64,000 nt of DNA from an uncultured Thermoleophilia bacterium (GTDB lineage: Bacteria > Actinomycetota > Thermoleophilia > UBA2241), in assembly GCA_963777895.1 (NCBI GenBank), contig CAVZSF010000003.1:124989-188988 (forward strand). The letters run 5' to 3'. The notes under the pieces are model-generated. The model saw nothing but the letters and a program-made list of their open reading frames with translations. It made no database searches and was not told the origin of the DNA. A program made the translations under genes and the position numbers. This document shows positions 8,658-64,000 of this stretch, one piece after another (position 1 is the stretch's first letter; the number at the start of each line of letters is the position of its first letter).

Positions 8658-8699
8658 CTGCGGGCGGACCGTCCGATCATCTGTCTCGCGGCGAAGGCG

Positions 8700-27931: not shown

Positions 27932-28108
27932 GAGCCTCCGAGAAGGACATTGAAAGGCGCAGGGACCGTGGGGGGCGGGACTTGGGTGCGGTTGGAGAGG
28001 ACCTTGGGCGCCGTTGGAGCAGGCTGGGCGCCACGAGCCTCAAACGAAACGGGCGGGGCGGCGCTTCCGCGCCGCCCCGCCCGTTGTCCCCTCACGGGGT
28101 TGTGGGCC

Positions 28109-29257
28109 TCAGTTGTACACGGGCTGGATCTCGCGCCACGTACCGCCCACGACACGCACGTGCAGCGCCACGATCCTGTCGAGCGCGTACAGGACGCCCG
28201 GGTCGAACATGATGGTCTGGTCGCCCTTGAGGACCACGTCCCCCTTGGCGATCAACATACCGTGCACGACGAAGCCGCCGTTGTTCGTGAAGGGCCCGTC
28301 CGTGTAGATGAGGCCGTAGAAGTCGCCGTTGCCACCCACGGTCAGCCCCCCGCCGCCCTCGAGGATGAGGATGCCCGGGAGCTTGGGGAGAGCAATCGTT
28401 CCGGCGCCGTTCGTGGTGCCGTTCGGCAGGTTGCTCAGGCCGTTCGTCTTGATGTACGTGATCCCCTCGAGTGCCGAGTTTGCCCAGCTCGCCACGGAAG
28501 GGGTCGTGTACTTGTGGGTGGCGGAGTCCTTGAGGATGGCCAGCACGTCCGGAGACAGGATCGTATCGGCGGAGGGCGTGGAACTGCCCGTCTGGCCACT
28601 GACGTTCGTGTCCAGCACGTCACCCCACTGGCTCGCGGGCAGGAGCCCGCTCGTGCTGTAGAAGCCCCCGGCGACTTCGGCCACGGCGGGGTCACCCGTC
28701 GTCGCCACATCCGCCTTCCAGTTGTTGATGGTCACTGTGCCGGGCGTGTTCAGGGCCACGTTACGGCGCAGCAGCGGGCTGAGGTTCACCAACTGCAGCT
28801 GCGCTTGGACGCGCGAAGCGCTGTTCCCGACACCCGCCTGTGCCTCGACATACAGCAGGCCGTCCTTGTTGGCGTCATACGGCACGCCGTCGGCACGGGT
28901 GACCTGTCCGTCTTCGTTGGTGTCCGCGTTGTCGAAGTACACGACGCTCACGAACGGCCCCTTGCCGGTCTTGGGGTCCGGGAAGTCCGTCGTGCTGAAG
29001 CTGTTCCTGAACGCGGTCGTGTCGAAGGTCGGGGCGGTCGTCGTCGGCCACTTGGCCGGAGCGCTCAAGTCGTACATCACCCGGTCGAGCGCAGCCTCCG
29101 CCACGTTGAACGATTTCGCCCTGTTCCGGTCCGTGCGCGTGTTGCTCTGTGCGTTCACTACGAGGATCACGAGCGACGAAGCAAGGATGGCGAGCGCGGC
29201 GACGATGCCGATCACCAGCACCAGGCTCGCGCCTCTCTGTGACTTAGCTCTGCGCAT
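28109..29257 (-). CDS. Type IV pilus minor pilin / pilus assembly protein with a PilX-N-terminal-like domain
   Basis: N-terminal TM (GASLVLVIGIVAALAILASSLVILVV) followed by …RAKSFNVAEAALD, characteristic of PilX_N. Confidence 0.6.
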   Translation of the reverse strand: MRRAKSQRGASLVLVIGIVAALAILASSLVILVVNAQSNTRTDRNRAKSFNVAEAALDRVMYDLSAPAKWPTTTAPTFDTTAFRNSFSTTDFPDPKTGKGPFVSVVYFDNADTNEDGQVTRADGVPYDANKDGLLYVEAQAGVGNSASRVQAQLQLVNLSPLLRRNVALNTPGTVTINNWKADVATTGDPAVAEVAGGFYSTSGLLPASQWGDVLDTNVSGQTGSSTPSADTILSPDVLAILKDSATHKYTTPSVASWANSALEGITYIKTNGLSNLPNGTTNGAGTIALPKLPGILILEGGGGLTVGGNGDFYGLIYTDGPFTNNGGFVVHGMLIAKGDVVLKGDQTIMFDPGVLYALDRIVALHVRVVGGTWREIQPVYN

Positions 29258-29266
29258 GCTTGCCCC

Positions 29267-29917
29267 CTAGAATTGCCGCGAGTTTCGCGGTTGGACCGTC
29301 GTCACGATCTCCGTGCGATTGGGCGAGTGGCCTGGGTTCAGGTCGATCAGCATCCTGATCTTCACCGATACGATCGAGCTCGTCGAGACGCCGTCCCACG
29401 CCGCCAGGCGTCCCGCGCTGTCGTACATGTAGTACTCGAACAAGGGGGCGCTCCCATCGGTCGGGCGGACGCAGTTCGTCGCCACCTTCATCTTCCTGTC
29501 GGTGTAGAAGGAGAGGCCCGCGGCGCCGTCGCTGTCTTCCACGCGGTAGAGGTCGTAGGTGCCCGAGGACGCCACGTATCGCATCAGGTAGCCGATGAGG
29601 ACAGGCGAGGTATTCGCCGCGTTGGCCGCGTCCGAGTCATTGAACAGCGTCGTGAAGTAGAGGCGATACGGCCTCGCCGTGCGGATCGATGCATAGCCCG
29701 GGACGGGCTGAGCGTCCCTGATCTCGCGGCTCAGCCGCCTCGTCGCGTCACGCGCGTACTCTCTCGCCTTCGTGTCCTTCGTCGTGAAGGAGTACGAGTC
29801 GCTGAGCGCGATCCACGAGGTGATGAGCATGGCGGATATCACCGTCGTGATGGTCATGCCCACGAGCAGCTCGATGAGGGTGATGCCGGCCTGTCGCTTG
29901 TCGCGTCTTCCTGTCAT
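29267..29917 (-). CDS. Prepilin-type N-terminal cleavage/methylation-domain protein (pseudopilin, PilW-like)
   Basis: GITLIELLVGMTITTVISAMLI class III signal peptide motif. Confidence 0.7.
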   Translation of the reverse strand: MTGRRDKRQAGITLIELLVGMTITTVISAMLITSWIALSDSYSFTTKDTKAREYARDATRRLSREIRDAQPVPGYASIRTARPYRLYFTTLFNDSDAANAANTSPVLIGYLMRYVASSGTYDLYRVEDSDGAAGLSFYTDRKMKVATNCVRPTDGSAPLFEYYMYDSAGRLAAWDGVSTSSIVSVKIRMLIDLNPGHSPNRTEIVTTVQPRNSRQF

Positions 29918-29933
29918 CGCAGCCCCCTCGCCC

Positions 29934-31669
29934 TCAGAAGACGAAGTCGATGGTTGTGGCGTTCGTGAGCATGGTGGTCTGTGACTTGGTCACCTGTACC
30001 GTCCCGACGTAGGCGACCGCGGTGACCCGGTAGGAGCCATAGGGCATGGGAACGGACGCCAGCCAGATCGCCGTGCCGTTGCTCGCGATGGACTTCGCCC
30101 CCTTACTGACGTCGGGGTCCGGATCGAGATAGGTGACCGTCACGGTGGCGTTGGCGTTGTAGACGCGCACGGTCAGAGAGTAGTTCTGCGCGGTGCCAGT
30201 CGTGGCCGTCACCGCGGCGCTGGCCGCAGACGTGTTCAGCGCCCCATCGACCGCCTTGAGATAGTAGCTGCGCGGCGACGTCGACCACCCGGGGACGTCG
30301 TTGTAGCTCGTCTGTCCTGGTCCCACGGTCGCGAGCAGGCTGCCGTCCCGGTAGATCTGATAGGCGAAGACGCCCGTCACCGGTTCGCCGACCGCGCCGG
30401 ACGGATCGGAGGCAGCCGCCCAGGTGAGCCGGACGTTCGGCCCCTGCGCCGTCGCGGCAAGCGATGCAGGCGCAGTGGGCGCGGTCTTGTCGGCCGACGA
30501 GACCAGGGGTGTGAGCGCCACGACGTTGCTGTTGGCGCTGCGCAGACCGAACGTGTCGACGACCTGCACGCGATACTCATAGGCCGTGCCGGCCACGACG
30601 CCCCGGTCGATGAAGAAGGTCGACAAGGCGCCGGCGGCGGCGTACGGGTCGGTCGGCCATGTGGTGCTGCTCGCTTCCTTGCGGAAGACGTCGTAGTGGT
30701 CGATGTCGGTGTCGCTCGGGGCCGCCCACGAGAGACTTGCCCCGCCGACGCCCGCCACACCGCTGACGATCACCGTCCCCGGCGCCCCCTTGTCGAGTGC
30801 AAAGGTCAGCTGCCAGACGTTGCCTGGCTGTCCGGCGACGATGCCCAGGGTCGGACTCGGGCTTGGGGTCGGCGCGGGGGTCGGCCCGACGAGGGTGCTG
30901 CCGGTGTAGGCGACCGCGGAGAAGGTGTAGGTGCCGTCGGGTGCCCCTGCAGCCACCGTCCAGGTCGTCGTGAACACCCCGTTCACGTGCTCACTGTTGG
31001 CTGCGTTGTAGCTCACCGTGGACGTGTAGGAGCCTGTGCCGCCCACCCTGTTGATGCGGAACTCGACGCGTCCCACACGCTGGCGGTCGGCGGCGGAGAT
31101 CGTCGCCGTCAGGGTAACGGTGGTGGCCGAAGAAGCGGACGTGTGGATATAGGAGCCCTCGTGGTCTACGTCCGACGCCAGTGGCGTCACCGCGAGGTTG
31201 GTGATCTGCGGTCCGGAGTCTTGGCGCGTAATGTTCGTACGGAGCACGACGCGCCTGCCAGCCGCGGAGCCCGAGCCAAGCCAAGTCACCGTGACGGTCA
31301 CCTGCTTGTAGGCGAGCACGCCGGTCGTGCTGCCGGTCGGCTTTACCTCGGTGACGCCGTAGTCGACGGTGAAGTTCTTCGAGGCGCTGCCCACCTGCGT
31401 CGTGACGGTGGGGCCGAACTGTCCCGCTGAGAAGCTGGGGTTGTAGAGGTTCGGCGTGGAGGCCGGAGTGGCCGAGTCCGCGACGATCTCGTCGTAGTCG
31501 AGCGTCCGGATCCTCTCGAGCTTGTCCTGCGCGATGTTGACCGCAACGGTCTTGGCACGGTCCTCCGAGCCCTTGCCGGCCGCCTGCACGAACAACGGCA
31601 CCATCGCCGCGAACGCGATGCCGGCGATGACGATGGTGACGAGCAGTTCGACGATGCTGAATCCCGCAT
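29934..31669 (-). CDS. Large pilin-like protein: prepilin N-terminus plus fibronectin-III/Ig-like repeats and a Pro/Thr/Ser linker. Apparent one-base deletion in the start region.
   Basis: With a GGG->GGGG correction the N-terminus reads MRGFSIVELLVTIVIAGIAFAAMVPLF…, a canonical prepilin leader. Downstream are TPAPTPSPSPT and FN3-like segments (…WAAPSDTDIDHYDVFRK…, …TWAAASDPSG…YQIYRDGS). Confidence 0.6.
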
Positions 31670-31984
31670 GGCCTCGCCGGGAGGCCTGTTCATGCCCTGC
31701 CTCCGGATAGCGAGGGGAACGTCTCCTCGTTCTATCGGCCGCACGCCGGAGAGCATGAGCGTCCGGGCCGATTTTCGTTGCCGCCGATGGCAGCGTCGTT
31801 AAGGCTTCTCCCTAGGCTCACTTTCCCTGTGGGCTCAGTACGAGCAGATGCGTGGCGGGTCGCTCGAGTCTGGATCCGGGCTCCGGGACGGGACTAGAAC
31901 ATTCGTCTAGCTGAGGAGAGGCGCGCGGCAGCGGAGGATCTGCCGGCATGCCGGCGCGGCGCGGACGGTGCGCCGCAGGACTCG

Positions 31985-34903
31985 CTACTGCAGCTGCTGG
32001 AGTTGGCTCAGCGTGTTCTGCAGGGCCTGGATCTGGCGGCCGTACTCGGCCCAATCGCCGTTCTGCTGGGCCTGCTGGGCCGCCTCGAACTGCTGGTTCG
32101 CCCGCTGGACGAGCTTCAGGGCCTGCGCGCTCAAGTTGCCGGTCGTGCCGCCTTGGCCGCCGGTGCCGCCCTGGCCGCCGGTGCCGCCCGTGCCTCCCTG
32201 GCCGCCCGTGCCCGGCGGCTGCACGTTCGGGACATTGCCGAAGGCCTGGGCGAGCGCCTCGCCCAACGTCGGCTGCATCACGACGATCTGCTCGCCCGCC
32301 GTCCCTTCGGCGGTCGTCGGCGTCTGGTAGAAGACGATGACCCGCTTCATCTGCGGCAGTTGGGTCTGCTCGCCCTCGAGGTAGAGCGGCTGCACGTAGA
32401 GCAGCGAGTCCTCGATCGGGATGACCAGCAGGTTCCCCATGATCACTCTCGAGCCTTGCTGGCCCCACAGCGAGCGCTGCGCCGAGATGGTCGGGTCCTG
32501 GTTGATGGCGGCCTCGACCTGGCTCGGTCCGTAGACGCTGGTGCCCTTGGCGAACTGGAAGGCGACGGCCTTGCCGTAGTCCTGGCCGTCGCTCAACGCC
32601 GCCAGCCACGCCACCATGTTGGGCCGCGTGTTCGGCACGAACGGGATCATGAGGAGGAACTCCTCCTGCTCCGTCTTCGGGAGGCTCATGATCACGTAGT
32701 ACGCCGCCATCCTGCCCGGCCCGCTCAACGCGACGTTGTCGGGGATCTGCCACTGGTCGCCCTTGTTGTAGAGCACCGCGGGATCGTCAACGTGGTAGGT
32801 CGCGTACACCTCGGACTGCACGTTGAAGAGCTGCTCCGGGTAGCGGATGTGATCCAGCAGAGCCGCCGGCATCTCGCTCCTCGGCGTGAAGAGGTCGGGG
32901 TAGATCTTCTCGTAGGTCTGCAGGATCGGGTCCTGCTCGTCGAAGGCGTAGAAGCGCATGGTGCCGTTGTAGGCGTCGATGACGGCCTTGACCGAGTTGC
33001 GGATGTAACTGACACCCGCCTCGGGCGTCGAGTACGGATACCGTCGAGTCGTCGTATAGGCGTCGGCGACCCAGTAGAGGCGGCCGTCCGAGATCACCAT
33101 GTACGGGTCCGGGTCGAAGGAGAGGAACGGGGCCGCCGCCTGCAGCCGCTCCACGATGTTGTTGCGGATGATCACGCGACTGTCGGCGTCGATGGCCGAC
33201 GACGTGAAGAACTTGATGGTGCCGAAGCGCCAGGCGAAGGCCAGCTTCGGCAGGAAGGACCCGATGCCGATCCCGCCGCTGCCGCTGTAGTTGCGGTAGA
33301 CATCGGCTCCGCCGGCGCCCGGGTAGTCGAACTCGCGGTCCTTGGTCTTCACCAGCGTGTAGTCGGTGCCGATCTCACCGTAGTAGATCCGGGGTTCCTT
33401 GATCTCGAGCCCCTGCACCGACCGGGGCGGGACGTCCTGCACGAGGAAGTCCGGGGACCCATCGGTCGTGACCTGGTTCACGGCGCTGACGACGGCCCCG
33501 AAGCCGTGGGTGTAGGTGATGTGCTGGTTGACCCAGGTCTGCGCCTGCGCGGGCAGGCCGGAGATATCGAGCTCGCGCGCGGAGAGCATCGTCTGCGTGT
33601 ACTCCCCCGCCACCGTGTACCGGTCGACGTCGGCGTCGACGAAGGAGTAGTAGGGGCGCAACTGCTGCAGCTGGCGATAGCTGCGCGTCAGGGTGTCGGG
33701 ATCCCACAGCCGGATGTTGCGAAGCGTCGCTTCGTTCTGCCGCAGGACACTCCCGGTGATCGCGGTCTTCATGGCGAGCGGCTGAGAGTCGACCTTGTCG
33801 AGATCGTAGGCGGCCTTCGTCGCGTCGATGTTGTGCTGGATGTACTGCTCTTCCTTGTCCAGCTGGTTCGGGTTCACGATCAGCGACTGGTAGGCCGCGG
33901 GGACGACCCCGCGCAGCACGATGAGGGCGATGACCCAGATGGCGATGGCGGCCGGCCACCAGCGGTGCCGCCGCCAGATGTTGTAGACGAGGGCGGCGGC
34001 CAGCGCGAAGGCCAGCACCATCGTCACGCGCGTGAGCGGCAGGCGGATGTGGACGTCGGTGTAGCCGGCGCCGAACACGGCGCCGGCCGTCGAGTAGAGC
34101 AGGTTCCAGGCACGGAAGAGCTGGCCGATGCCGACCGCGACGAAGATCGCGGCGAGCACTGCCGAGAGGTGGGCGATCGCGGGGCCGGAGAGATGGAGCT
34201 CGACCCGGGAGCGCACGTACTGGGCCGCCTCGCTGGGGCTCGTCGGCCCGCGGAACGGCCCTCCCTCGGCCCCGGCGGGCGGCGGGGCAGCAGTGTACTC
34301 GATGCCGCCCAGCACCAGATGGACGATGGCGGCCGCGATGAGCGACGCGATCAGCGCGGCCAGCACGAAGTTCTGCACGGCCTGCCACGCCGGCATGGTG
34401 AAGACATAGAAGCCGAGGTCGCGCCCGAACACGGCGTCCTTCTCGCCGAAGCTGGTGGCGTTGAGGGCGCGCAGGAAGAGCAGCCAGGCGCCCGAGGCGC
34501 CGAACCCGGCGATCACGGCGACGATGCCCGCCACGATCAAGCCGATGCGTCCCACGTAGCGCCGCACCGTCTCGCTGCGTGGCTCGATCACGCCTTCGAT
34601 GCTCGACCGGAAGTCGGGCGCGAGGCGGCGAGCCAGCAGGATGTTGGCCGCCACGACCACGAAGAACACGGCCGCCGCAGCGGCGCCGAGCGCGAGGCGC
34701 GACCACACCCTGGTCCAGAACACCGACCGCAGCCCCACCTCGCCGAACCACAGCCAATCCACGTACATCCCGACGAGACGGCCGAGCAGCGAGGCGATGA
34801 CGACCACGAGGACGACGACGATCGCGATGACGACGGTGCGCAGCCTGCGGCGAGGATCGGGACGCGGGGGACGGCGCGCGCGGAGCGGCGTGACATTGTC
34901 CAT
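31985..34903 (-). CDS. UPF0182-family membrane protein
   Basis: 972 aa, N-terminal multi-TM region then a large extracytoplasmic domain. Ends in a Gly/Thr/Gln-rich and Q-rich tail. Architecture typical of UPF0182. Confidence 0.8.
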   Translation of the reverse strand: MDNVTPLRARRPPRPDPRRRLRTVVIAIVVVLVVVIASLLGRLVGMYVDWLWFGEVGLRSVFWTRVWSRLALGAAAAAVFFVVVAANILLARRLAPDFRSSIEGVIEPRSETVRRYVGRIGLIVAGIVAVIAGFGASGAWLLFLRALNATSFGEKDAVFGRDLGFYVFTMPAWQAVQNFVLAALIASLIAAAIVHLVLGGIEYTAAPPPAGAEGGPFRGPTSPSEAAQYVRSRVELHLSGPAIAHLSAVLAAIFVAVGIGQLFRAWNLLYSTAGAVFGAGYTDVHIRLPLTRVTMVLAFALAAALVYNIWRRHRWWPAAIAIWVIALIVLRGVVPAAYQSLIVNPNQLDKEEQYIQHNIDATKAAYDLDKVDSQPLAMKTAITGSVLRQNEATLRNIRLWDPDTLTRSYRQLQQLRPYYSFVDADVDRYTVAGEYTQTMLSARELDISGLPAQAQTWVNQHITYTHGFGAVVSAVNQVTTDGSPDFLVQDVPPRSVQGLEIKEPRIYYGEIGTDYTLVKTKDREFDYPGAGGADVYRNYSGSGGIGIGSFLPKLAFAWRFGTIKFFTSSAIDADSRVIIRNNIVERLQAAAPFLSFDPDPYMVISDGRLYWVADAYTTTRRYPYSTPEAGVSYIRNSVKAVIDAYNGTMRFYAFDEQDPILQTYEKIYPDLFTPRSEMPAALLDHIRYPEQLFNVQSEVYATYHVDDPAVLYNKGDQWQIPDNVALSGPGRMAAYYVIMSLPKTEQEEFLLMIPFVPNTRPNMVAWLAALSDGQDYGKAVAFQFAKGTSVYGPSQVEAAINQDPTISAQRSLWGQQGSRVIMGNLLVIPIEDSLLYVQPLYLEGEQTQLPQMKRVIVFYQTPTTAEGTAGEQIVVMQPTLGEALAQAFGNVPNVQPPGTGGQGGTGGTGGQGGTGGQGGTTGNLSAQALKLVQRANQQFEAAQQAQQNGDWAEYGRQIQALQNTLSQLQQLQ

Positions 34904-35078: not shown

Positions 35079-37187
35079 TCAGGCGGCGGGCGTGCGTGCG
35101 CTGTCCGAGTCGCCGCGCAGCATCGCCACGAACCGCTGGACCATACGCGGATCGAGGGCGCGCGCCGACTCGCCCCGCAGCCGCTCCAGCGCCTCGTGGC
35201 CGCCGCGTCCGTACTCGCGGCAGACGGCGAAGGCGCGGGCGACGCGCGGGATGCGGGCCCCGCGCCGTCCCTCCGGGTAGCCGCTGCCGTCCCAGCTCTC
35301 GCTGCCGTACAGCAGCGCCTCGACGGCCTGCCGCCGGACGTCGTACTTGCCGCCGCCGTTGTGGCCGTTGCCGTTGGTGCCGTTGCCGCCGCCGAGGATC
35401 GCCTGCACGTCGTCGCCCAGGGACGCGCCGGCCTCGTAGACGGCGAGAGCCGTGACCAGGCCGGCCGTCTCGAACTCGCTGAGCGCGAGCTGCGCGGCGA
35501 AACGGCGGCCCACGTCGGCCAGGTCGCCGGCGATCATCGCCGCCATCCTGGCGGTGTCTTCGCCGGCGAGACAGACCCGGTTGCGACCACGCGCCTTGGC
35601 GCGCAGCAGGGCGGCGTCGGCCGCCGCCAGCACGCCGTCGCTGTCGCTCGCCGACTCGGGGAAGGCGGCGACGCCGATCGACATCGTCACCTTGACCGCG
35701 TCGGCGTCGATCTGCGCAACCTGTTCGCGCACGCGTTCGGCCAGCGTCGCCGCCTCGGCCAGCCCGGTTTGCGGCAGGATCATGACGAACTCCTCGCCAC
35801 CGTAACGGGCCTGATAGTCCGACTCGCGGGAGCACGAACGCAGTACGTCCGCCACGTCGCGCAGGACCTCGTCGCCCGCCTGGTGTCCGATGGTGTCGTT
35901 GACCGTCTTGAAGTGATCGAGATCCATCATCAGGAGGCAGAACGTCTCCTCGTAGCGCTCGGCCCGGCTGACCGTCGCCTTCAGCGTGTCGTGGAAGTGA
36001 CGGTAGTTGTGGATCCCGGTCAGGCCGTCGCTGATCGCCTGACGTTCCATGTCCTCGTAGCTGCGCGCGTTCTGGATGGCGATGGCCGCCATATTAGCGA
36101 ACAGCTTCGCCGGCTCGAGCTCCTCCTCGGCGAAGGTCCCGCCGCCGAGGCGGTCGATCGAGAGTACTCCCGTCACCTTGCCGCGCACGTTCAGCGGCAC
36201 GATGATGCTCGCCTGCGGCTCGCCTTCCTCCGTGCCCGGGATGAAGACGCCGCGCGGGTCGGTGTTCATGTCGTTGACGAGCTGCGCCTCGTTGTGGCTC
36301 ACCACCCATCCGGTGACGCCCTCGTCGAGCGCGCTCCTGAAGTCGAGCATCTGCTCGGCGCTCTCGTCGCGCGCGTAGATCGCGACCAGCTCGTTCGTGT
36401 CCTCGTCCACGAGGCGAATGTCCATGGTGTCGTAGTCGACGATCTGCTTCAGCATCGTCGTGATCAGCTGGAAGACGTCGCGCTGGTCGAGGGTCGACAG
36501 AAGAGCGGTGCTCAGGTTCAGGAGTTGGTGCCGAGTGGCGAGCTCCCGTTCGAGCTCGGTGCCCGTCGCCTCGAGCTGCTCCTGCTGGCGGGCGCTCTCG
36601 ACCGCCACCGCGGCGTGGGCGGCGAACACTTCCAGCGCCTTGACCTGTTCGAGCGTGGGGATCGCCTTGTCCTCCGGATCGTACAGGTCGACGACGCCCA
36701 TGAGCTGGTGGCGCTTGTCGTAGAACGGGACGAACAGGTCGTCGTCCTGGTCCCACTCGCCGGGACGACGCGGGCCCAGCGGCAGAGGCGGCAGGTAGTA
36801 GAGCTGCTCCTCCGTCCATTCATGCCGGCGATGATCGATAAAGAACGACGAGCCGATCTGATGACGCTCGACCAGGAGCTCGTCCCAGATGTGGCTGGGG
36901 ACCGGCCGCGCGAAGACGTCGGCGTCGTAGTCGGGGTGTTCGCCCACGGTCGCCCACGCCCGGTACTTCGCGCCGTCCGGTTCTACCAGGTAGACGGTGG
37001 ACTCACGGTAGCCGAAGGTACTCGTCACGGTGCTGACGATGGCACGGACGATGCCCTCGAGGTCGGAGCCGGACTGGATCTCGCTGGCGAGCCGCACGAG
37101 GCCATGCAGCAGCTCGCTCTCGCCGCGCTCCGCCTTGCGGTTCTTGCCGCCGAACACCACTCGTGCTCCCTGGTCGGGGTTCCTCAC
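35079..37187 (-). CDS. GAF-GAF-GGDEF diguanylate cyclase with a C-terminal extension
   Basis: Two GAF-like regions, a GGEEF active-site motif (ARYGGEEFVMIL) and an RxxD-type region. The C-terminal ~150 aa are of unclear function. Confidence 0.8.
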   Translation of the reverse strand: MRNPDQGARVVFGGKNRKAERGESELLHGLVRLASEIQSGSDLEGIVRAIVSTVTSTFGYRESTVYLVEPDGAKYRAWATVGEHPDYDADVFARPVPSHIWDELLVERHQIGSSFFIDHRRHEWTEEQLYYLPPLPLGPRRPGEWDQDDDLFVPFYDKRHQLMGVVDLYDPEDKAIPTLEQVKALEVFAAHAAVAVESARQQEQLEATGTELERELATRHQLLNLSTALLSTLDQRDVFQLITTMLKQIVDYDTMDIRLVDEDTNELVAIYARDESAEQMLDFRSALDEGVTGWVVSHNEAQLVNDMNTDPRGVFIPGTEEGEPQASIIVPLNVRGKVTGVLSIDRLGGGTFAEEELEPAKLFANMAAIAIQNARSYEDMERQAISDGLTGIHNYRHFHDTLKATVSRAERYEETFCLLMMDLDHFKTVNDTIGHQAGDEVLRDVADVLRSCSRESDYQARYGGEEFVMILPQTGLAEAATLAERVREQVAQIDADAVKVTMSIGVAAFPESASDSDGVLAAADAALLRAKARGRNRVCLAGEDTARMAAMIAGDLADVGRRFAAQLALSEFETAGLVTALAVYEAGASLGDDVQAILGGGNGTNGNGHNGGGKYDVRRQAVEALLYGSESWDGSGYPEGRRGARIPRVARAFAVCREYGRGGHEALERLRGESARALDPRMVQRFVAMLRGDSDSARTPAA

Positions 37188-43475: not shown

Positions 43476-45261
43476 TCAGGCCTGCGTCGCGAACCCGAGC
43501 CGGGCGGCGAACTGCGCCTGGAAGTCCTTGTTCGTGGCGAGCTCGAGGAAGGAGATGCGGCGGCGCAGGCGCGCCATGCGACGGCGCGCGAGCACGTCGA
43601 TGAGGGCCATCTGGGCGCCCACCCCGGCGGCGTTGCCCACGAACAGGACGCGGTCCGTGGGCACCGGCGGCAGCAGGTCTATGTACAGCGAGTTGCCCAG
43701 GTCGAGGTAGTTGCCGAAGGCGCCGGCGACGTACACCCGATGCAGGTCGGCCACGCTCACCCCCAGGCTCTCGAGCAGCAGGGTCCAGCCTGTCGCGATC
43801 GCGCCTTTGGCCAACTGCAGGTTGCGCACGTCGTGCTGCGTGAAGACGATCTCGCCGTTGGGACCGCTGGTCAGCAGGTACTCGGACGATCCCGACTCGC
43901 CCTTGCGGACCAGCGGGTGCGACAGCATGCGTCCGCTGCGGTCCACGACGCCGCTGCGCACCAGACCGGCGAGCAGGTCGACCACGCCCGAGCCGCACAT
44001 GCCGAGCGGGGCGCCGTTCCCGATGGTCTGGATGCTCGCGGGGTGGCCGGCGGCATCGATCGTGACCTTCTCGATCGCGCCGGCGACCGCCTTCATGCCG
44101 TGGGTGATCTGGTAGCCCTCGAAGGCGGGGCCCGAGGCGCAGCTCGTCACGGTGACCTCGCCGTCGTGCACGAGGGCGATCTCGGTGTTGGTGCCGATGT
44201 CGATGGCGAGCGACGGGCGGCGGCGCGTCGCGAGCCGCGTCGCGGCGATCACGGCGAGCGCGTCCGAGCCGACGAACCCGGCGATCGGCGGCGGGAAGTA
44301 GACGCCGCCCTCGGGGTTCATGTCGATGCCGAGGTCGGCGCCGCGCACGAGCACCGGCTCGGCTGCAGCCGGCGCGTAGGGCGCGGCGCCGAGCCCCTGG
44401 GCCGGCAGGCCCAGGACCAGATGATGCATCGCCGTGTTGCCGACGACCGTCATGTCGTAGAGGTGCTTCGCCGCGATGCCCTGACGCTGATACAGGGCGG
44501 CCAGGCACTCGTTGACGCCCGACCTGGCCGCCTCCGCCAGCTCCGCGCGGTGCTCGCCCGACTGCGCGATGCGGCTCACGACGTCCTCGCCGTAGCGCAT
44601 CTGGGGGTTCTCCACGGCCTCGGAGTCGACGTGCTCGCCGCGTTCCAGGTCGAACAGGTACGTCACGATCTTCGAGGTGCCGATGTCGACCGCGGCGCCG
44701 TGGGCGACGCCCGCCGCCTCCGGCGCCTCGACATCGATCAGGCGCCGCCCGTACCGCGTGAACGTCGCGCGCCAGCCGTTGCCGCGGAGCACGTCCGGCG
44801 CCTCCCGCAGTGCCTGGTACGGGACCTCGACCCCGTGCAGCACGGCCTGCACGCGCTCGAGGTCGCTGCGGGCGTCGCCGATCACGGGCGGGTCGAGCTG
44901 CTCGGTCACGCGCGTCACCGCCGGATGGGCGGCGCCGTGCCGCAGCCGGCTCGTGGTCAGGATGCGCCTGCGTGCCGCTGGTCTCGCGCACCTCGATGCT
45001 GACACGGGAGGACACCGGCCGCGCCTGACAGGCGAGCCGCCAGCCCGTGGCGCGCAGCTTCTCCGGGACCTTGCGGATCTCGACCTCGGTCGGCTCCGTG
45101 AGCTCGCCGGCCCCGAGGCGCACGAGGCACTTGCCGCACGTGCCCCGTCCGGCGCACACGTTGGGGACGTCGATACCGACCCGCAGGAGGGCGTCCAGCA
45201 AGGTCTCGTCCTGGCCGACCTCGAGGGTCACGCCGATGGGCTCGACGAAGACTTTGGTCAC
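43476..45261 (-). CDS. Corrinoid reductive activase (RamA/RACE family: N-terminal 2Fe-2S ferredoxin domain plus ASKHA ATPase domain), with an apparent frameshift near 44900-45005
   Basis: N-terminal plant-type ferredoxin (MTKVFVEPIGVTLEVGQDETLLDALLRVGIDVPNVCAGRGTCGKCLV…) in one frame. The ASKHA/DUF4445 body (…AAVDIGTSKIV…, …AIDIGTNTEIALV…, …CGSGVVDLLAGL…) is in the adjacent frame (ORF 43476..45005). Confidence 0.7.
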
Positions 45262-49624: not shown

Positions 49625-51081
49625 TCAGCTGCCGGCGAGCTCCCTGTCGGCGCGCGTCACGATGGCGCGCAGCTCCGCGGTCACGTCTTCCGGGAGCGGC
49701 TGCGGCTCGTAGGTCGCAAGGATCTCGTCGGCCATCTCCGTCGCCTTCTCGAGGGCGCCCTTCTTGCCCTCGCGCAGCCACACGTCGTACGGCGTGCGGT
49801 CCCAGACGGTCGGCCGCCAGATCTCCTTCATGTGCTGACGGGTGTGTCTCTCGGCCAGATACGTCCCGTTGGGGCCGACCCGCTTGATCACGTCCAGCGC
49901 CAGCGTTTCGTCGTCGACCTGCACCCCGCCGGCGACCTTCTGCACGATGCCGTAGATCTCGGTCTCCATGATCATGTGCGGGTAGCTCAGGATCTTCGAC
50001 CCGTTGAGCAGGCCGCAGCCGTTCATCATGTCGGCACACGTCATCACGCTCGCGAAGGTGCTCAGGGAGTCGTCGATGGCGGCCTGCCAGTCGGGCTCCT
50101 TGGCGCCGGTGGCCATGGTGCCCATCGCCATCGGGATGCCGTAGAAATGGGCGAGCTGGGTGGAGGCGGCGGCGAGCAGGTAGTCCTCGGGCGAGCCGCC
50201 CGTGTAGCCGCCGGTCTTGAGGTCGATCACGCTCGGGGCGCCGGCGAAGAAGCAGGGTACGCCCGGGAAGGCGAGCTGCAGCATGACGACGCCGCTGAGG
50301 GCCTCGGCGTTCTGGACGACGAGGTTGCCCGCGATCGTGGCCGGCCCCGTGCCGGCGCTGAGCGGCATCGGCATGAAGCCGCTCGCGAGGCCGTGCTCGG
50401 CGGCGACAAGGTTGGCCTCGAGGTTGGGGCCGTCGTGCGCGAGCGGGTCCACGGCGCACTGCATGAAGCTGACGATCGGGCGGCGGCGCAGCTCGTCGGT
50501 CCCGCCGACGATCGCCGCCGCCATCTCAACGAGGTAGCGCGCCGCCTTCTCGCCGACCGTCGTCACCGCCTGGTAGTGCTTGCTCGTGTTGGTGAGCACG
50601 GCCTCAGAGTCGTGGAGCGCCTTGCTCGCGGGCGGCACATCCTGCGACGTGACGACCGGCCCCCAGTAGTAGCTGACGGCCGGGAGCGCGTCGACGAAGC
50701 GGGCGGAGGTGGCGGCGTCGGCCTTGGTCGAGGGCCGCTTCTCGCCGGTGTGGTGGTCGTAGACGAACACGCCGGAGCCGTCGTTCGAGAGGTAACAGTG
50801 GCGCCGGTCGATGAGCATGTCGGCGGCCGCGTCGCGGCCGGCGAGCACGTACTCCTCCGGCGCCTGCTTGACCGCCTCCATGACGACGGCGCGCGGGAAG
50901 CGGACGACCTGCGTCGCCCTGTCGACCGCGCAGCCGCCCTTCTCGAGGACGTCCAGGGCGCGTGCGCTCGGGAAGCGCACGCCCGTCTCCTCCATCACCT
51001 CGAGCGTGGCTTCGTGGATGCGTTCGAGCTCGGACGGCGAGAGCACGTCCCAGCGGAGCTTCGGTTCGATGGGGTTGATCC
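49625..51081 (-). CDS. MttB-superfamily methyltransferase with no internal amber codon (presumed non-pyrrolysine), tandem copy B
   Basis: Start MTARINPIEPKLRWDVLSPSELERIHEATLEVMEETGV… (GAGG before ATG). C-terminal …DDETLALDVIKRVGPNGTYLAERHTRQHM…PLPEDVTAELRAIV. Confidence 0.85.
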
Positions 51082-51126
51082 TTGCAGTCATCTGGACCTC
51101 ACGATGGGTACTTGTCTGGGACGTTC

Positions 51127-52540
51127 TCAGGCGGTCGGGCGGGACGCCTCCACCTCGGCGAGGATGCGGTCGAGTCCGGCCTTCACCTCGTCGCCCAGCT
51201 CGAAGGCGCGCGGCTCGGCGCGAAGCGCCGCCACGCGCGCCCGCAGGCGGTCGACCAGGGTCGGACGACCCTTCCTCCACCCAGTGGGCGTGGCGCGAGG
51301 TGTCGAAGAGGTCGCTCTGCCAGATCCCGCGGAAGTGCTTGCGCGTGTACGGCCGGGCCAGGTGGCTGCCGCCCGGCCCCACCGCCGCGATCTCTTCGAG
51401 GGCGAGCGCGTCGTCGTCGACCGGCAGCGGCGCCATGAACGCCTTGGCGTACCCGATGAGCTCGTTGCCGAAGAGGATCGACTCGTAGCTGCTCTGCAGC
51501 CCTGCCTCGAGGTAGCCCACGTCGTGGAGCAGCGTCGCCCGCGAGAGCAGGCCGGTGACGGCGGTGATCGCGGCCTCGGCGCTCCACTGCCCGTCGAGCG
51601 ACTTGCTGTCGCTGTGCGCGGCGTAGCTGAAGCTCGGCAGGTCGTACCAGCGGGCGAGGTCGGTCTGCGCCTGATAGCCCTGGATCGGGCCGGCGGACGC
51701 GTACACCTCGTTCATCGTGCGCATGTTCATGGCGCCGACGCCGACACCCCACACGAAGGGAGCGCCGGGCTTGACCGCCTGGCTCAGCACGAGGCCCGCC
51801 AGGGTCTCGGCGTTGGCGACCACGATGACGGCCGCGATGCTGGCCGGCGCCGTCGTGCCCGCGTTCGGCGCCGGCGCCCAGATCAGCGGGATGTCGAGCT
51901 CGGCGCACGCCATGACCTTGCTGGCGCCGTCCTCGTCGAACATGAGCGGCGGCACGGGCATGGCGTAGATGCCGAAGCTGCCCGCCTCTCCAGCCAGGGC
52001 GCACATCTCCTTCATCCGGCCCAGGATGTGGCCGTCGCGCGGCGCCACCAGGAGCGGCTTGCGCGTGCCGCGCACCATGGCGTCCACCTGCGCCAGGTCG
52101 TCGATCGCCTGGGGCACGTCCTCCGGCAGTCCCATGCTCATCACGAAGTCGATGTTAGGCAGCTTCTCGCAGAGCGCCGCCTGGCCCTCGACGTCGGCCT
52201 TCACGACGCGGCGGCGCTCACGCGTGTCGGGGTCGCAGATATAGAGCACGTCGGAGCCGGTGCCGCAGTAGGTATGACGGGCGTCCAGCACGAGCGGCTC
52301 GGTCGTGCCGCCGCGCGGCTTCAGCTGACAGCCCCGCGACGCGCTCTTGAGGGCCGCCTCGACGAGGTCGGCCGGGATGCGCACGCGTGTCCCGTCGACG
52401 CGCGCGCCGGCGCGCGCGAAGGTCTCGACCGCCGGCGCATAGCGCACCTCGATGCCCGTCTCGGCGAGCACCTGCAGGGTGGCCTCGTGCGCCCGGCGAC
52501 AGGCGTCGTCGCCCCAGATGGTCAGGCGAGCTTCGTTCAC
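51127..52540 (-). CDS. MttB-superfamily methyltransferase with no internal amber codon (presumed non-pyrrolysine), tandem copy A. Apparent one-base insertion in the GGG run at 51269-51271.
   Basis: MNEARLTIWGDDACRRAHEATLQVLAETGIEV… through …DDALALEEIAAVGPGGSHLARPYTRKHF…HAHWVEEG, then a frame change to …RPTLVDRLRARVAALRAEPRAFELGDEVKAGLDRILAEVEA*, a plausible family C-terminus. In the unshifted frame the ORF reads through into copy B. Confidence 0.75.
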
Positions 52541-52819: not shown

Positions 52820-54316
52820 GTGCCGATGAAGCGCAACCTGCACGCCGGCCACCCGCGGAGGGGTGGCCTCAGCCTCAACGTCTTCACCGAGGCAGAGCTC
52901 GACGACATCCACCTCGCGTCCCTCGAGGTGCTGGAGCGCACCGGGATGTGGGTCGAGGACGACGAGGCGCTCGCCATCTTCGCGGACGGCGGCTGCCGCG
53001 TGGACCGCGAGAGCCGGATGGTCCGGATCCCGCCGCACGTCGTCGAGGACGCGATACGCAGCGCGCCACCGCTCTTCGTGCTCGCCGGGCGCGACCCGGC
53101 CAACGACATCGTGCTCGAGCCCAGCCGCGTGTCGTTCTGCAACTTCGACGAAGGCATCATGGTCAACGACCTGCGCAGCGGCGAGCATCGCGAGCCCACT
53201 CTGAGCGACATCGCCGAGTTCGCCCGCCTGGTGGACGCGCTGCCGCACATCGACTGCTACGAGCCCGCCGCGGGACCGTCCGACGTGCCGCACGAGACAG
53301 CGGTCCTGCACGGCACCGAGGCCGCCCTGCACAACTGCACGAAGTGCGTCGGCACCGAGGCCATTTCGGCGTGGGAGGTCCGCAAGGTCCTCGAGATGGC
53401 GGTCGCCGTCATGGGTAGCGAAGATGCCCTCCGCGAACGGCCGATCGTAGGCTTCGGCTGCTGCCCCGTGAGCCCGCTGAAGCTGCCGCACGACGCCACC
53501 GAGGTGATCGTCGAGACGGCACGCCGGGGCATCCCCTGCGGCGTGCTCTCGATGGCGATGTCCGGCGGGTCTTCCCCCGTAACGCTGGACGGCACGCTCG
53601 TGCTGCACAACGCGGAGGTCCTTGCCGGCATCACACTCTCGCAGCTCACAGAACGGGGCGCCCCGGTCGACTACGGGACCTCGACCACGGCCATGGACAT
53701 GAAGCTGGCGGCGGCGAGTGTCGGGTCGCCGGAGCTGGCCCTGTTCAGCGCCGCCGTGGCGCAGATGGCGCGACGGTACCTGATCCCGAGCTTCGTGGCG
53801 GGGTTGTAGGCGGATTCGAAGCTCGGTGACGCGCAGACCGGTCACGAGAAGACCCTCACCGGCCTGATGGCTGCGTTGGCAGGGGCCAACCAGATCTACG
53901 GGGCGGGGATGATCGAGTCGGGCGTCACCTTCGACGGAGCGCAGCTCGTTATGGACGACGAGATCGCCGGGATGATCAAGCACTGTGTCATGGGCATTTC
54001 TGTGAGCGACCCCACCATGGCGGTGGAGGACATCGCCGAGGTCGGACCGTTCGGGGACTTCTTGAGCCTGGACGCGACACTGCGGCACATGCGGGCACTC
54101 AGCCAGCCGGCGCTGCTCGACCGTCGCGTGCGCGAGGACTGGGAGGAGCGCGGCGCCAGCGACCTGTACGCGAGGGCGCAGGCGAAGGCCCTCGAGATCG
54201 TCGAGGGCCACAAGCCCGCGCCGCTCGACCCCGACGCGGCGCGGCAGATCCGCGCCATCGTCGAGACCGCCGACCGTGAACGCGGCGTGGTCGCCCCGCC
54301 CGTCCAGTACACCTAG
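52820..54316 (+). CDS. mttB: Trimethylamine methyltransferase MttB of the pyrrolysine type, with an in-frame amber codon (TAG 53807-53809) at the position expected for pyrrolysine
   Basis: GGGAG RBS. Continuous frame over 498 codons, interrupted only by TAG at codon ~330. Flanking sequence …LSMAMSGGSSPVTLDGTLVLHNAEVLAGITLSQLT…[70 protein letters not shown]… closely matches archaeal and bacterial Pyl-containing MttB around Pyl334 (495-aa M. barkeri protein), as far as I can recall without an alignment. The gene also terminates with TAG. Confidence 0.75.
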
Positions 54317-60856: not shown

Positions 60857-62107
60857 CTAAGGCCCTGGAGTGCTGCCCGGATATGGGGGCCGCTCCGCCG
60901 AGCTCCCCTCAAGCAGCAGCACCATGAACTGCGCGCCGGGGTCCGCACCGGCGAAGCCGGCGGGCACGAGGGCGAGCCCGTCCGCCAGAGCCATCGAACG
61001 CAGGATCCCGGAGCCCTGCGGGCCGGTCGTCGTGAAGACCCAGCCGCCATCTCGATGCAGCAGCCGGCAGCGGCGCGCCTCCGTGCGTTCCTTGGTGCGC
61101 TCCACGGGTTCCCTCGCGGCCGCGACGACGTAGGGACGATAGAGGTCCGCCCGGCCCTGCAGCGCGAGCAGCGCCGGCCGCACGTACAGCTCGAAGCTGA
61201 CCATGGCGGCCACGGGGTTCCCCGGCACGCCGAAGACGAGCGTCTCGCCGCGCACGCCGAAGGCGAGCGGCTTGCCGGGCTTCGTCGCGACGCCCCAGAA
61301 GCGCCGCTCGACGCCGAGCTCCTCCTGCACCTGCTTGACGAAGTCGAACTCCCCGACGGAGACGCCCCCGCTCGTGATCACGACGTCGTGCTCCAGCGCC
61401 AGGCCGAGCAGGCGGCGCGTCTCGTCCGGGTCGTCGCGGGCGATGCCGAGCAGCACCGGCTCGGCGCCGGCGGCGAGCACCTGCCCGTAGGCCGTGTACG
61501 AGTTCGAGTTGCGGATCTGTCCCGGAGCGAGGGACTCGCCCAGCGGGACGAGCTCGCTTCCGGTCGCCAGGATCGCCACCCACGGCCGGCGCGCGACCGG
61601 CACCCGCTCGTGGCCTGTCGATGCGAGCAGACCGATCTCGGCCGGGCCCAGGTGGGCGCCGCGCGGCAGCACCACGTCGCCGGCGGCGACGTCCTCGCCC
61701 GCGCGGCGCACGTTGGCGCCCGGCGAGACCGCCTCGCGCACCACCAGGGTGTCGCCCTCCTGGGCGGTCAGCTCGACCGGCACCACCGTGTCCACCCCGG
61801 GCGGCAACGGCGCGCCCGTCATGATCTTGGCCGCCGCCCCGGGAGGGACCTTGTCGGCGACGTAGCGTCCGGCCGGGATCTCTACCGTGACGGTGTAGCG
61901 CGTGCGTCCCGAGGCGAGCTCATCGCCGCGCACCGCGTAGCCGTCCATGGCCGAGTTGTCGAACGACGGCACAGGGTCGGTGGCAGTGAGATCCGCGGCG
62001 GCGGTGCGGCCTAGCGCGTCGAGTAACGGCACGCGCTCGACGCCGAGCGGCCGCGCCGCCGCCAGCACCTTGTCCAACGCCTCGTCTATTGTGATCAGCG
62101 GGGTCAT
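60857..62107 (-). CDS. moeA: Molybdopterin molybdotransferase MoeA
   Basis: …SAMDGYAV…, GGVSVG and GLPGNPVAA-type motifs (GVPGNPVAAMVSF). Confidence 0.85.
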   Translation of the reverse strand: MTPLITIDEALDKVLAAARPLGVERVPLLDALGRTAAADLTATDPVPSFDNSAMDGYAVRGDELASGRTRYTVTVEIPAGRYVADKVPPGAAAKIMTGAPLPPGVDTVVPVELTAQEGDTLVVREAVSPGANVRRAGEDVAAGDVVLPRGAHLGPAEIGLLASTGHERVPVARRPWVAILATGSELVPLGESLAPGQIRNSNSYTAYGQVLAAGAEPVLLGIARDDPDETRRLLGLALEHDVVITSGGVSVGEFDFVKQVQEELGVERRFWGVATKPGKPLAFGVRGETLVFGVPGNPVAAMVSFELYVRPALLALQGRADLYRPYVVAAAREPVERTKERTEARRCRLLHRDGGWVFTTTGPQGSGILRSMALADGLALVPAGFAGADPGAQFMVLLLEGSSAERPPYPGSTPGP

Positions 62108-62141
62108 CGCCGGTGAAGTCTCAACTGTTTACGCCACTTAG

Positions 62142-62168
62142 TAAACTCCCCCTGTTGCGAGTCCGATA
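62142..62168 (+). promoter_or_regulatory. Sigma-28 (FliA/WhiG)-type promoter: TAAA-N16-CCGATA
   Basis: gTAAActccccctgttgcgagtCCGATAg lies about 35 nt upstream of a strong AAGGAG RBS and the FlgM-like ORF. The consensus is TAAA-N15-GCCGATAA. Confidence 0.45.
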
Positions 62169-62200
62169 GCGCTAGCAGGAAGCAGGCGAAGGAGCCCGAC

Positions 62201-62389
62201 ATGACCTTCCCCGACGAGCAGCGCAGCATCACCCAGGGACCGCCCTCAGGAGCGACACCCCAGCGCATCGAGACGCTGAAGCAGCTTGTGCGTCACAGCG
62301 CCTACGACGTCCCGGCGGACGAGGTCGCGGCACGCATCATTCGCTACGCCTTCGGCCTTCCCATGCCCATCGCGCGCGGGCGCAACTGA
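62201..62389 (+). CDS. FlgM-family anti-sigma-28 factor-like small protein
   Basis: 62 aa. The C-terminal segment QRIETLKQLVRHSAYDVPADEVAARII resembles the FlgM C-terminal helix region. Strong AAGGAG-N7-ATG start. Its 3' end overlaps the convergent VanZ-like ORF by about 50 nt, which lowers confidence. Confidence 0.45.
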   Translation: MTFPDEQRSITQGPPSGATPQRIETLKQLVRHSAYDVPADEVAARIIRYAFGLPMPIARGRN

Positions 62390-62750
62390 GCACCACCAGG
62401 CCGGCGATCCCGCCGGCCACGTCCGTCGCGAGATCGCCGAGCTGCATGTCCCGGTAGGGCAGCGGCCCCTGCACGAGTTCGACGACCCCGCCCAGCGCCG
62501 CGGTCATGGCGAGCGCCACCACGGCCGCCTTGAGGAAGCTGGGCTGGCCGCGCCGTGCGAGCAGCCAGTCGCCTGCGAGGAACGCGAACACGGCGAACTC
62601 GGCGAAGTGGCCGACGACCGTCGACAGGCTCTCCTCCTCGCCGACCACGGCCTGCAGTGTGTCGTGGGTGGGCACGACGCCGAAGACGAGCACGACCGCC
62701 CCCCATCCGAGCAGCAGCACTGCTCTCCGCCCGGGATCAGGGTCCACGGC
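62337..62750 (-). CDS. VanZ-family membrane protein
   Basis: …VGHFAEFAVFAFLAG… and …LVQGPLPYRDMQLGDLATDVAGGIAG… are VanZ-like. The start is likely an internal GTG near 62750, since the ORF-track N-terminus overlaps the TPK gene. Confidence 0.45.
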   Translation of the reverse strand, partial: AVDPDPGRRAVLLLGWGAVVLVFGVVPTHDTLQAVVGEEESLSTVVGHFAEFAVFAFLAGDWLLARRGQPSFLKAAVVALAMTAALGGVVELVQGPLPYRDMQLGDLATDVAGGIAGLVVLSCARARWAWEGRRRSE

Positions 62751-63537
62751 GCGCCCCGCGGCGATGCGCCCCGAACGTCTCGCCGCCGTCGAAGACGAGG
62801 ACCGCAACGACCCCCTCGTGGACAGCGACGGTGGCTCCAGGTGCGCCGCTGGGCCCGGACGCGGCGGCGCCTCTGGCCACAACGGTGGCCCCGCCTTCCA
62901 CGATGGCCGCGGGCGCGACGCTGTTGCCTAACCCGAGGGTCGCGTCGCACGGGATCGTTTCGTGGGTCAGCCCGTACTCGAACCGCTCGAGCGTGACCAC
63001 CGCGTCACCCGCCAGCGGCAGCAGCGAGACCCTGGCCCCTGGATGCGCGTCGAGGGTCACGGTCTCGCGTGCGACCAGGACGCGGACGACAAGGCTCGGC
63101 GAGGCCAACCGCGCCGGCACGCCGCGCTCGGCGGCGCGGCGCAGCAGGACCAGGTGACCCCACGTGTGGTCGAGGGCGCCGAGGGCGCCGGCGAGGATCA
63201 CCTCGCCGGCGCCGCGGCGCAGCACTTCATCGAGCGCCAGCTCGCCGTCGGTCGCGTCCTTCCTGACAGGGTGGCGGAGGACCTCGGCGCCGGCGCCCGC
63301 CAGGGCGCTGAGGTCCTCTGCTGGAAGCGAGTCGAAGTCGCCGACGAGCAGGCTGGGAACGACGCCGATGCGGCGCAGGAAGCGGGCGCCGCCGTCCGCG
63401 GCGGCGACCACGTTGACGGCCGCCGCGACGGCGGCGTAGTAGGCGTCGTCTTCGTACGTCCCGTCGAGGAAGATCGCCGCCGACACCGGGCCGCCTTCCG
63501 CGCCGCCGCCGCCTCCGTCCGCCGCCACCGCTGGCAC
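62737..63537 (-). CDS. Thiamine pyrophosphokinase
   Basis: …VGDFDS… catalytic motif and TPK-like layout. Gly/Ala-rich N-terminal extension. Confidence 0.7.
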   Translation of the reverse strand: MPAVAADGGGGGAEGGPVSAAIFLDGTYEDDAYYAAVAAAVNVVAAADGGARFLRRIGVVPSLLVGDFDSLPAEDLSALAGAGAEVLRHPVRKDATDGELALDEVLRRGAGEVILAGALGALDHTWGHLVLLRRAAERGVPARLASPSLVVRVLVARETVTLDAHPGARVSLLPLAGDAVVTLERFEYGLTHETIPCDATLGLGNSVAPAAIVEGGATVVARGAAASGPSGAPGATVAVHEGVVAVLVFDGGETFGAHRRGARRGP

Positions 63538-63558
63538 GCGGGCCGCGTGCTGCCGCCC

Positions 63559-63622
63559 AGTCCCCGCGCGCCTCCTCCCGCTCCCCGCGCGCCTCCTCCT
63601 GCTCCCCGCGCGCCCTCACCGG
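63559..63622. repeat. 21-bp direct tandem repeat x3 (GTCCCCGCGCGCCTCCTCCCG / CTCCCCGCGCGCCTCCTCCTG / CTCCCCGCGCGCCCTCACCGG)
   Basis: Located between the partial ThiT-like gene stop and the TPK start. The third unit overlaps the upstream gene's stop. Confidence 0.6.
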
Positions 63623-64000
63623 CCGTCCCCCGGGAAGGCTGCGTCATAGGCGCGCAACAGCGGCGAAAGGAGCAGTGCGGTGACGATCGCCGAGGGCACG
63701 AGATACAGCAGGTTGTACGTGAGGGAGTAGAGCCACGCGGCCTCCCACGCGGGGGCGTATTCGGCGAAGAACAGGAGGCCTGAGAGGAAGTGGAAGAGGA
63801 GACGGGCGCCTGCACCGACGGCGACTGCCGCGACCAGCCGCCAGGCGGCGCCGGGCGCGCCCGGGACCACGCGGACGAGGCCCGCCAGCCCCAAGGCCCC
63901 AAAGGCGAGTGGGTAGTCGAGGGCCGCTTGCACGGGGTGATAGATGTAGGGAGCACCGCCCACGCCGAGCAGCTGCAGGCCGCCGAACAGGGCGCCGGCG
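63616..64000 (-). CDS. ThiT/YuaJ-like thiamine transporter S-component, 5' partial at the window edge
   Basis: The hydrophobic C-terminal region …FHFLSGLLFFAEYAPAWEAAWLYSLTYNLLYLVP… resembles the ThiT family. Adjacent to thiamine pyrophosphokinase. Confidence 0.4.
   Translation of the reverse strand, partial: AGALFGGLQLLGVGGAPYIYHPVQAALDYPLAFGALGLAGLVRVVPGAPGAAWRLVAAVAVGAGARLLFHFLSGLLFFAEYAPAWEAAWLYSLTYNLLYLVPSAIVTALLLSPLLRAYDAAFPGDGR

Follow-up and report, generated by a model that had tools for sequence, protein, structure and literature searches.

What does a sequence resembling a promoter of the sigma-28 family control when it stands between moeA and a group of thiamine genes? The original prediction was that it drives a 62-codon open reading frame (ORF) whose product resembles the anti-sigma factor FlgM at its C-terminus. 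Analysis of the locus and its relatives suggests that the prediction is probably right: a gene for a short FlgM-type anti-sigma factor would be transcribed from its own sigma-28-type promoter, closing a feedback loop.

Genomic context of the small gene

The window, by which we mean the whole 64,000-nucleotide stretch of DNA of an uncultured Thermoleophilia bacterium that was analysed, has a base composition of 70% G+C, and its genes are metabolic, with many MttB-family methyltransferases, ABC transporters and EamA transporters among them. As originally stated, there are no flagellar genes nearby: no flagellar, chemotaxis or sigma-factor genes were called in the 64-kb window. A phmmer search with E. 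coli FliA as the query, run against all ORFs of the window and of the related loci (each up to 20 kb long), detected no sigma-70-family member. The intergenic gap from the divergent moeA gene to the 62-codon ORF is 93 nt. The features of the locus are as follows:

60857 to 62107, minus strand: divergent moeA (molybdopterin molybdenumtransferase), with Pfam domains MoeA_N, MoCF_biosynth and MoeA_C
62113 to 62140, plus strand: conserved block GTGAAGTCTCAACTGTTTACGCCACTTA, directly 5' of the -35 box
62141 to 62145, plus strand: putative -35 element GTAAA of the sigma-28 (FliA/SigD/WhiG) type, at a fixed distance from CGAT in 46 of 46 loci
62146 to 62161, plus strand: 16-nt promoter spacer, variable, of low information between two high-information boxes
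62162 to 62169, plus strand: putative -10 element TCCGATAG (consensus GCCGATAA), with CCGAT nearly invariant across the family
62174 to 62178, plus strand: predicted transcription start region, placed by how far below the -10 element sigma-28 transcripts usually start
62188 to 62194, plus strand: ribosome-binding site GAAGGAG, 6 nt 5' of the ATG, invariant among close relatives
62201 to 62389, plus strand: gene for a 62-aa FlgM-like protein, recognized by homologues, codon-position bias and a sub-threshold match to Pfam FlgM
62258 to 62353, plus strand: two predicted helices, aligned to the sigma-28-binding half of FlgM (AlphaFold2, Pfam, hhalign)
62337 to 62720, minus strand: convergent VanZ-like gene (Pfam VanZ, E=4e-6; NCBIfam vanZ_1 above the cut-off)

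The start of moeA lies 34 nt to the left of the -35 box, and moeA is the divergent neighbour in every locus. To the right of the VanZ-like gene, also on the minus strand, are genes for thiamine pyrophosphokinase (TPK) and ThiT/YuaJ, in agreement with the reported proximity of moeA and thiamine genes; beyond ThiT come a MarR/HATPase_c gene and then dnaA and dnaN, with the FlgM-like gene approximately 3.5 kb from dnaA. The order in every locus examined is MttB, (tRNA-editing domain), sortase, moeA on the minus strand, the small gene on the plus strand, VanZ-TPK-ThiT on the minus strand, MarR/HATPase, dnaA and dnaN. The 3' ends of the VanZ-like and FlgM-like genes overlap by 53 nt, close to the 50 nt or so originally estimated. 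This overlap had been taken as a reason to doubt the small gene, a concern that proves unfounded because overlaps of 47-53 nt recur across related loci and because one distant locus (L048), from which VanZ is absent, retains both the small gene and the promoter.

A scan of one genome per species with a broader alignment recovered 40 loci in metagenome-assembled genomes, nearly all labelled as uncultured Thermoleophilia and none from a named species or strain; the scan of the genome collection with only the five close homologues of the small protein found no locus. MoeA is 67-87% identical across loci, which indicates that the loci belong to one deep but coherent lineage.

Two features of neighbouring genes were observed in passing. 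In L001, an ENA assembly apparently of the same organism, moeA (8656-9180) is called as 174 aa, compared with 416 aa in the window, which suggests a frameshift or assembly error in the long-read contig. The protein that combines HATPase_c and MarR domains (280 aa; L001 12647-13489) is encoded immediately upstream of dnaA, approximately 450 nt past the window's right end; its identity across loci (66-84%) is at least that of DnaA and clearly exceeds that of VanZ, TPK and ThiT. The pairing of these two domains is unusual, and the gene is close to the replication origin.

A predicted sigma-28-type promoter

The site was first described as gTAAA-N16-CCGATAg, a close match to the FliA/SigD/WhiG consensus. 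The match to the consensus stands and the spacing needs correction: TAAA (62142-62145) and CCGATA (62163-62168) are 17 nt apart rather than 16, and a spacer of 16 nt applies if the -10 box is taken as TCCGATAG. Written as GTAAA-N16-TCCGATAG (62141-62169), the site conforms to TAAA and GCCGATAA, the classical sigma-28 boxes (PMC8325347), placed 15-16 nt apart. The strong AAGGAG ribosome-binding site and the 62-aa ORF are present as described, the former as GAAGGAG and 20 nt from the -10 element rather than the approximately 35 nt first given. The ATG at 62201 is 32 nt past CCGATA, with the ribosome-binding site between them; in other loci, an equivalent AAGGAGG precedes a GTG or ATG start. Both the orientation of the site and its distance to the downstream start codon fit a sigma-28-dependent promoter, and transcription from the predicted start would yield a 5' untranslated region of approximately 24-27 nt.

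TAAA-N15-17-CCGATA occurs once on both strands of the 64 kb, compared with a mean of 0.01 in shuffled sequence, and a search of the window with a relaxed sigma-28 motif gave no further site ahead of any gene. Scanning of 61800-62700 for sigma-70 promoters and intrinsic terminators found none. A second sequence of similar form, TAAA-N17-GCGAT on the minus strand (window 62106-62131), overlaps the moeA start codon; it probably arose by chance, as it is not conserved in the related locus L003 or in the wider family.

Comparison of the 46 loci with upstream DNA (the window and 45 related loci; in other terms, 44 tabulated loci plus L048 and L050, the two most distant members) shows how tightly the site is maintained. 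All 46 have GT(A/C)AA, exactly 18 nt and then CGAT; the -35 box varies only at its third base, where GTAAA has A and GTCAA has C. The -10 box across loci is xCCGAT(A/T)x, with GACGATAT in one distant relative. CTTAGTAAAC and CCGAT carry close to the maximum information, and the spacer carries little. The relaxed motif has 56 matches in 755 kb of related DNA, 44 of which are the promoter site and 12 of which lie within coding sequence; shuffles of the same 755 kb contain 3-9 matches. From the end of the -10 box to the start codon there are 27-34 nt in 41 of the 44 loci. Two boxes at a fixed spacing with a free spacer between them are what a promoter, rather than an operator, would show. Thus, the promoter class first proposed is borne out by boxes and spacing that are invariant in all 46 loci around a spacer that varies, and assignment of a sigma-28-type promoter to the FlgM-like gene is well supported at the level of sequence.

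The closest published counterparts are WhiG and FliA promoters. The consensus used to search for WhiG1/2 promoters consists of a -35 element xT(C/A)Ax, a 16-nt spacer and a -10 element GCCGA, and the same A/C degeneracy at -35 has been published for WhiG promoters (PMC13595943). The WhiG/FliA promoters of Actinomycetota (Streptomyces, Rubrobacter and Actinoplanes) share consensus and spacing with the site described here and lie less than 200 nt from the start codon (PMC8325347, PMC13595943). Unlike the targets of the actinobacterial promoters compared, the target gene here is a putative homologue of FlgM.

A hairpin within the spacer was considered and rejected as a functional element. Close relatives have a 7-bp dyad, ACTCCCC-N4-GGGGAGT, which is broken in the window itself, and the best spacer stem averages 3.75 bp compared with 3.12 +/- 0.12 bp in shuffles, a weak excess among sequences that are related to one another.

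Coding status and distribution of the 62-codon ORF

The original prediction would have been abandoned if the small ORF were not conserved in relatives, and homologues were found in the related loci. The five close homologues of the 62-aa protein are 61-62 aa long and 76-100% identical to it, and their loci share its gene order. Among 1.84 billion cluster representatives, a profile search picked out 18 more distant small proteins, and a word-indexed search with a wider alignment raised the family to at least 457 proteins, most of them 59-62 aa long. When 24 orthologues of equal length were compared, the substitutions in their conserved core were distributed 19, 13 and 67% over the first, second and third codon positions; the GC3 of the ORF is 0.84. 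Because 67% of substitutions are at third codon positions, the ORF is, on this comparative evidence, coding and under purifying selection.

ORFs of 96-97 aa have been called for some members of the family (P0013, P0036 and others), reading through the promoter. These longer calls were rejected on two grounds: in the window clade, the frame is interrupted by a stop at 62114 and offers no start codon ahead of 62201, and conservation upstream of the small gene is not codon-like. Several family members bear the JGI name 'anti-sigma28 factor', the one NCBI name seen for the family is 'hypothetical protein', and none of the listed members carries a precomputed Pfam domain.

Resemblance of the product to FlgM

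The Pfam FlgM profile (PF04316) matches the window protein with an E-value of 0.0041 and a score of 17.7 bits, below the cut-off of 25, by aligning residues 18-47 with profile positions 25-54 of 55; NCBIfam has no match for the window protein. Across the family, 20 of 22 members match PF04316 at E < 0.1, below the threshold (best E-value 8.7e-6), always in the C-terminal half of the model (profile positions approximately 19-54), and no family other than FlgM recurs among the Pfam matches of the 22. Profile alignment by hhalign of the family with three canonical FlgM proteins gives a probability of 69% (P = 4e-5) and places residues 16-52 on residues 56-92 of Salmonella FlgM, i.e., on its two C-terminal helices; the three reference sequences were validated against Pfam at 38-66 bits. 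The family motif TGSRERRVxVLRDLVAERGYDVPAEDVAASII resembles a 32-residue stretch of FlgM of B. subtilis.

AlphaFold2 predicts helices at residues 20-32 and 39-51, with pLDDT of 70-80 in the helices and a mean of 67 overall, and leaves residues 1-19 and 52-62 unstructured. The modelled 62-aa protein would therefore have the architecture of FlgM, a disordered N-terminus followed by C-terminal helices. Sequence-profile searches of the PDB with two family queries (A2 and A3) and with Salmonella FlgM yielded no FlgM match, and a Foldseek search of the PDB with the AlphaFold2 model returned nothing meaningful, as expected for a two-helix peptide. The FlgM-like C-terminus noticed at the outset is thus recognizable in 20 of 22 members and by hhalign, and these comparisons support identification of the product as a short protein homologous to the C-terminal, sigma-28-binding half of FlgM.

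The protein is like FlgM of Salmonella and B. subtilis in being small and predicted to be largely disordered, with two C-terminal helices in register, and in being encoded behind a sigma-28-type promoter: flgM of Salmonella has a class 3 promoter and flgM of B. subtilis is sigma-D-dependent. It differs in length, with 59-62 residues compared with 88-97 in canonical FlgM, and is one third shorter, without the N-terminal half of the Pfam FlgM model. Nor is the gene linked, as canonical flgM is, to flgN, flgK, flgA or a flagellar cluster.

Helicobacter pylori, which is flagellated, has a short FlgM (HP1122, approximately 67 aa) that retains the C-terminal module for binding sigma-28 and whose gene lies apart from most flagellar genes. 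The H. pylori protein is likewise truncated but comes from a different phylum, and the two are likened here by description only. RsiG, the anti-sigma factor of WhiG that is armed by c-di-GMP, would share the sigma family and the phylum with the protein described here, but the two are not homologous. A regular-expression search found the RsiG signature E(X)3S(X)2R(X)3Q(X)3D in none of 58 family members; in RsiG this signature, on a coiled-coil helix, binds c-di-GMP, and single-motif RsiG proteins occur in Thermoleophilia (PMC8325347).

Proposed autoregulatory circuit

In the circuit that we favour as probable, RNA polymerase carrying the sigma-28-family factor of this lineage would recognise GTAAA-N16-TCCGATAG and start transcription at about 62175; translation of the short leader's message, aided by a strong ribosome-binding site, would produce the 62-aa protein; and the two C-terminal helices (residues 20-51) would bind sigma-28 and keep it inactive. 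Output of the anti-sigma factor would follow the level of free sigma factor, as in classical negative feedback. The sigma-28-dependent promoter that characterizes flgM genes is seen here as a motif and in its conservation, whereas we infer the existence of a sigma-28 factor in the genome, its use of this site, its binding by the small protein and the relief of inhibition, whether by flagellar export or by some other route. Cultured Thermoleophilia possess WhiG homologues (PMC8325347), and FlgM is reportedly kept in the basal actinobacterial classes that contain FlgF/FlgG (PMC10746217).

We regard the circuit as real but ordinary: sigma-28 promoters paired with flgM are textbook material, and there are precedents for short FlgM proteins. 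What is unusual is mainly the position of the pair beside moeA and near dnaA, and the fact that it is largely unannotated. The perfect conservation of the promoter may also be read as indirect evidence of an active sigma-28 regulon in this uncultured lineage.

The original prediction allowed for either a motile lineage with dispersed members of a flagellar regulon or a WhiG-like developmental circuit, and the locus may belong to either. The same parts may thus serve a function unrelated to flagella. A WhiG-type sigma-28 factor would then be dedicated to other functions, such as the type IV pili and c-di-GMP enzymes under its control in Rubrobacter, which we consider unlikely; equally doubtful is the corresponding role of the small protein, that of an anti-sigma factor relieved by some means other than flagellar export. 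The gene keeps its place among housekeeping genes close to dnaA, is never beside flagellar genes in the loci examined and encodes a protein that is missing the longer N-terminal region of canonical FlgM; however, short FlgM proteins also occur in flagellated bacteria, as H. pylori illustrates. The window contains a prepilin-like gene cluster and a GAF-GGDEF gene, but no sigma-28 motif precedes its pilin-like or GGDEF genes. In Rubrobacteria, a sister class, genes for pili and c-di-GMP are targets of WhiG (PMC8325347), whereas Thermoleophilia count among the basal classes of actinobacteria, those with flagellar clusters in 41-91% of species (PMC10746217).

A second alternative arises from the sequence directly upstream of the promoter. 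The block at 62113-62140 is 100% invariant among six close relatives and highly conserved in the family, with the consensus gGAGTCatatCTGcTTACGCATCTTA; over its 25-28 nt, it is conserved as strongly as the promoter boxes and is AT-rich for the genome. It adjoins the -35 box even in loci where the moeA start is 80-190 nt away, and neither a consensus of the sigma-70 type nor a match to Rfam nor a shared RNA fold was found in it. It might function as an UP element, as an activator site or within the divergent moeA promoter. In the window clade, the block and the -35 box together form the palindrome GTTTAC-N9-GTAAAC, the left arm of which is not conserved elsewhere.

The bipartite site might accordingly be some other regulatory element, such as an operator or a promoter for the divergent moeA gene, with the likeness to sigma-28 promoters coincidental and the protein a relic of the FlgM fold in another role. 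Consistent with such an element, the conserved block reaches well past the -35 box within the region upstream of moeA, and no sigma-28 gene was seen in the window or the related loci. Several properties of the site make this alternative quite improbable: the fixed spacing of two boxes about a free spacer is a promoter signature; the distance to the start of the small gene is maintained, but that to the start of moeA ranges from approximately 34 to approximately 190 nt; the -35 box shows the A/C degeneracy of WhiG promoters; and a sigma-28 promoter is to be expected at the downstream gene more than at any other.

That the conservation reflects a structured RNA instead, either a minus-strand moeA leader or riboswitch or an antisense or small RNA, is extremely unlikely and already largely refuted: the spacer has dyad symmetry in some clades (7 bp in close relatives), and the minus-strand ThiT, TPK, VanZ and moeA genes could be co-transcribed across the region, but the dyad is broken in the window, an Rfam search of 61900-64000 at E-values up to 5 gave a chance match only and no molybdenum-cofactor riboswitch, RNAalifold found no consensus structure on either strand of 44 anchored intergenic sequences (energy approximately 0), and the substitutions in the ORF follow codon position.

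Implications for anti-sigma factors of Actinomycetota

The autoregulatory reading of the locus provides a concrete and testable anti-sigma candidate for sigma-28/WhiG in deep-branching Actinomycetota. The analysis also identifies a family of at least 457 members that curated profiles miss, with matches to Pfam that fall below the threshold and, for the window protein, no match in NCBIfam. A 2026 study based on reference and representative genomes states that almost no flagellar cluster of actinobacteria contains FlgM and that WhiG1 has no known anti-sigma partner (PMC13595943). A bolder interpretation, to which we assign a low probability, is that the family constitutes an overlooked, minimal FlgM subfamily (two helices, approximately 60 aa) acting as the anti-sigma factor for a sigma factor of the WhiG/FliA type in an order of Thermoleophilia that is uncultured and possibly anaerobic, uncoupled from any flagellar cluster and perhaps from flagellar export. 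Such a subfamily would offer a candidate for the anti-sigma partner that is 'missing' for WhiG1-type sigma factors of Actinomycetota, as well as a case of FlgM controlling a non-flagellar regulon.

Other features of the window

The window encodes at least six MttB paralogues, and a RACo corrinoid-activation gene is located at 43476-45005. One MttB-family (trimethylamine methyltransferase) frame of 498 codons on the plus strand (52820-54316) is interrupted by a single in-frame TAG at 53807-53809, in the context ...PSFVAGL*ADSKLGD..., and is split by gene callers into products of 327 and 149 aa. The TAG is at the same codon in eight other species-level genomes (L002, L009, L010, L020, L030, L033, L034 and L037), changes around it are synonymous, and paralogues carry Ala, Ser or His at this position. 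It resembles a codon for pyrrolysine, in which case this Thermoleophilia lineage would decode pyrrolysine. The window contains no tRNA-Pyl, and a literature search found no link between pyrrolysine and Thermoleophilia. On the minus strand, a 971-aa ORF (49625-52540) contains two MttB-family stretches and is apparently a fused double methyltransferase.

Elsewhere on the minus strand (window approximately 28070-34903, corresponding to L007 10001-16834), a 972-aa protein with no Pfam domain has after it a prepilin-type (N_methyl) protein (window approximately 31186-31695) and four more ORFs devoid of domains. This group, which is possibly a pilus-like or pseudopilin cluster, is adjoined by the GAF-GGDEF gene at 35079-37187.
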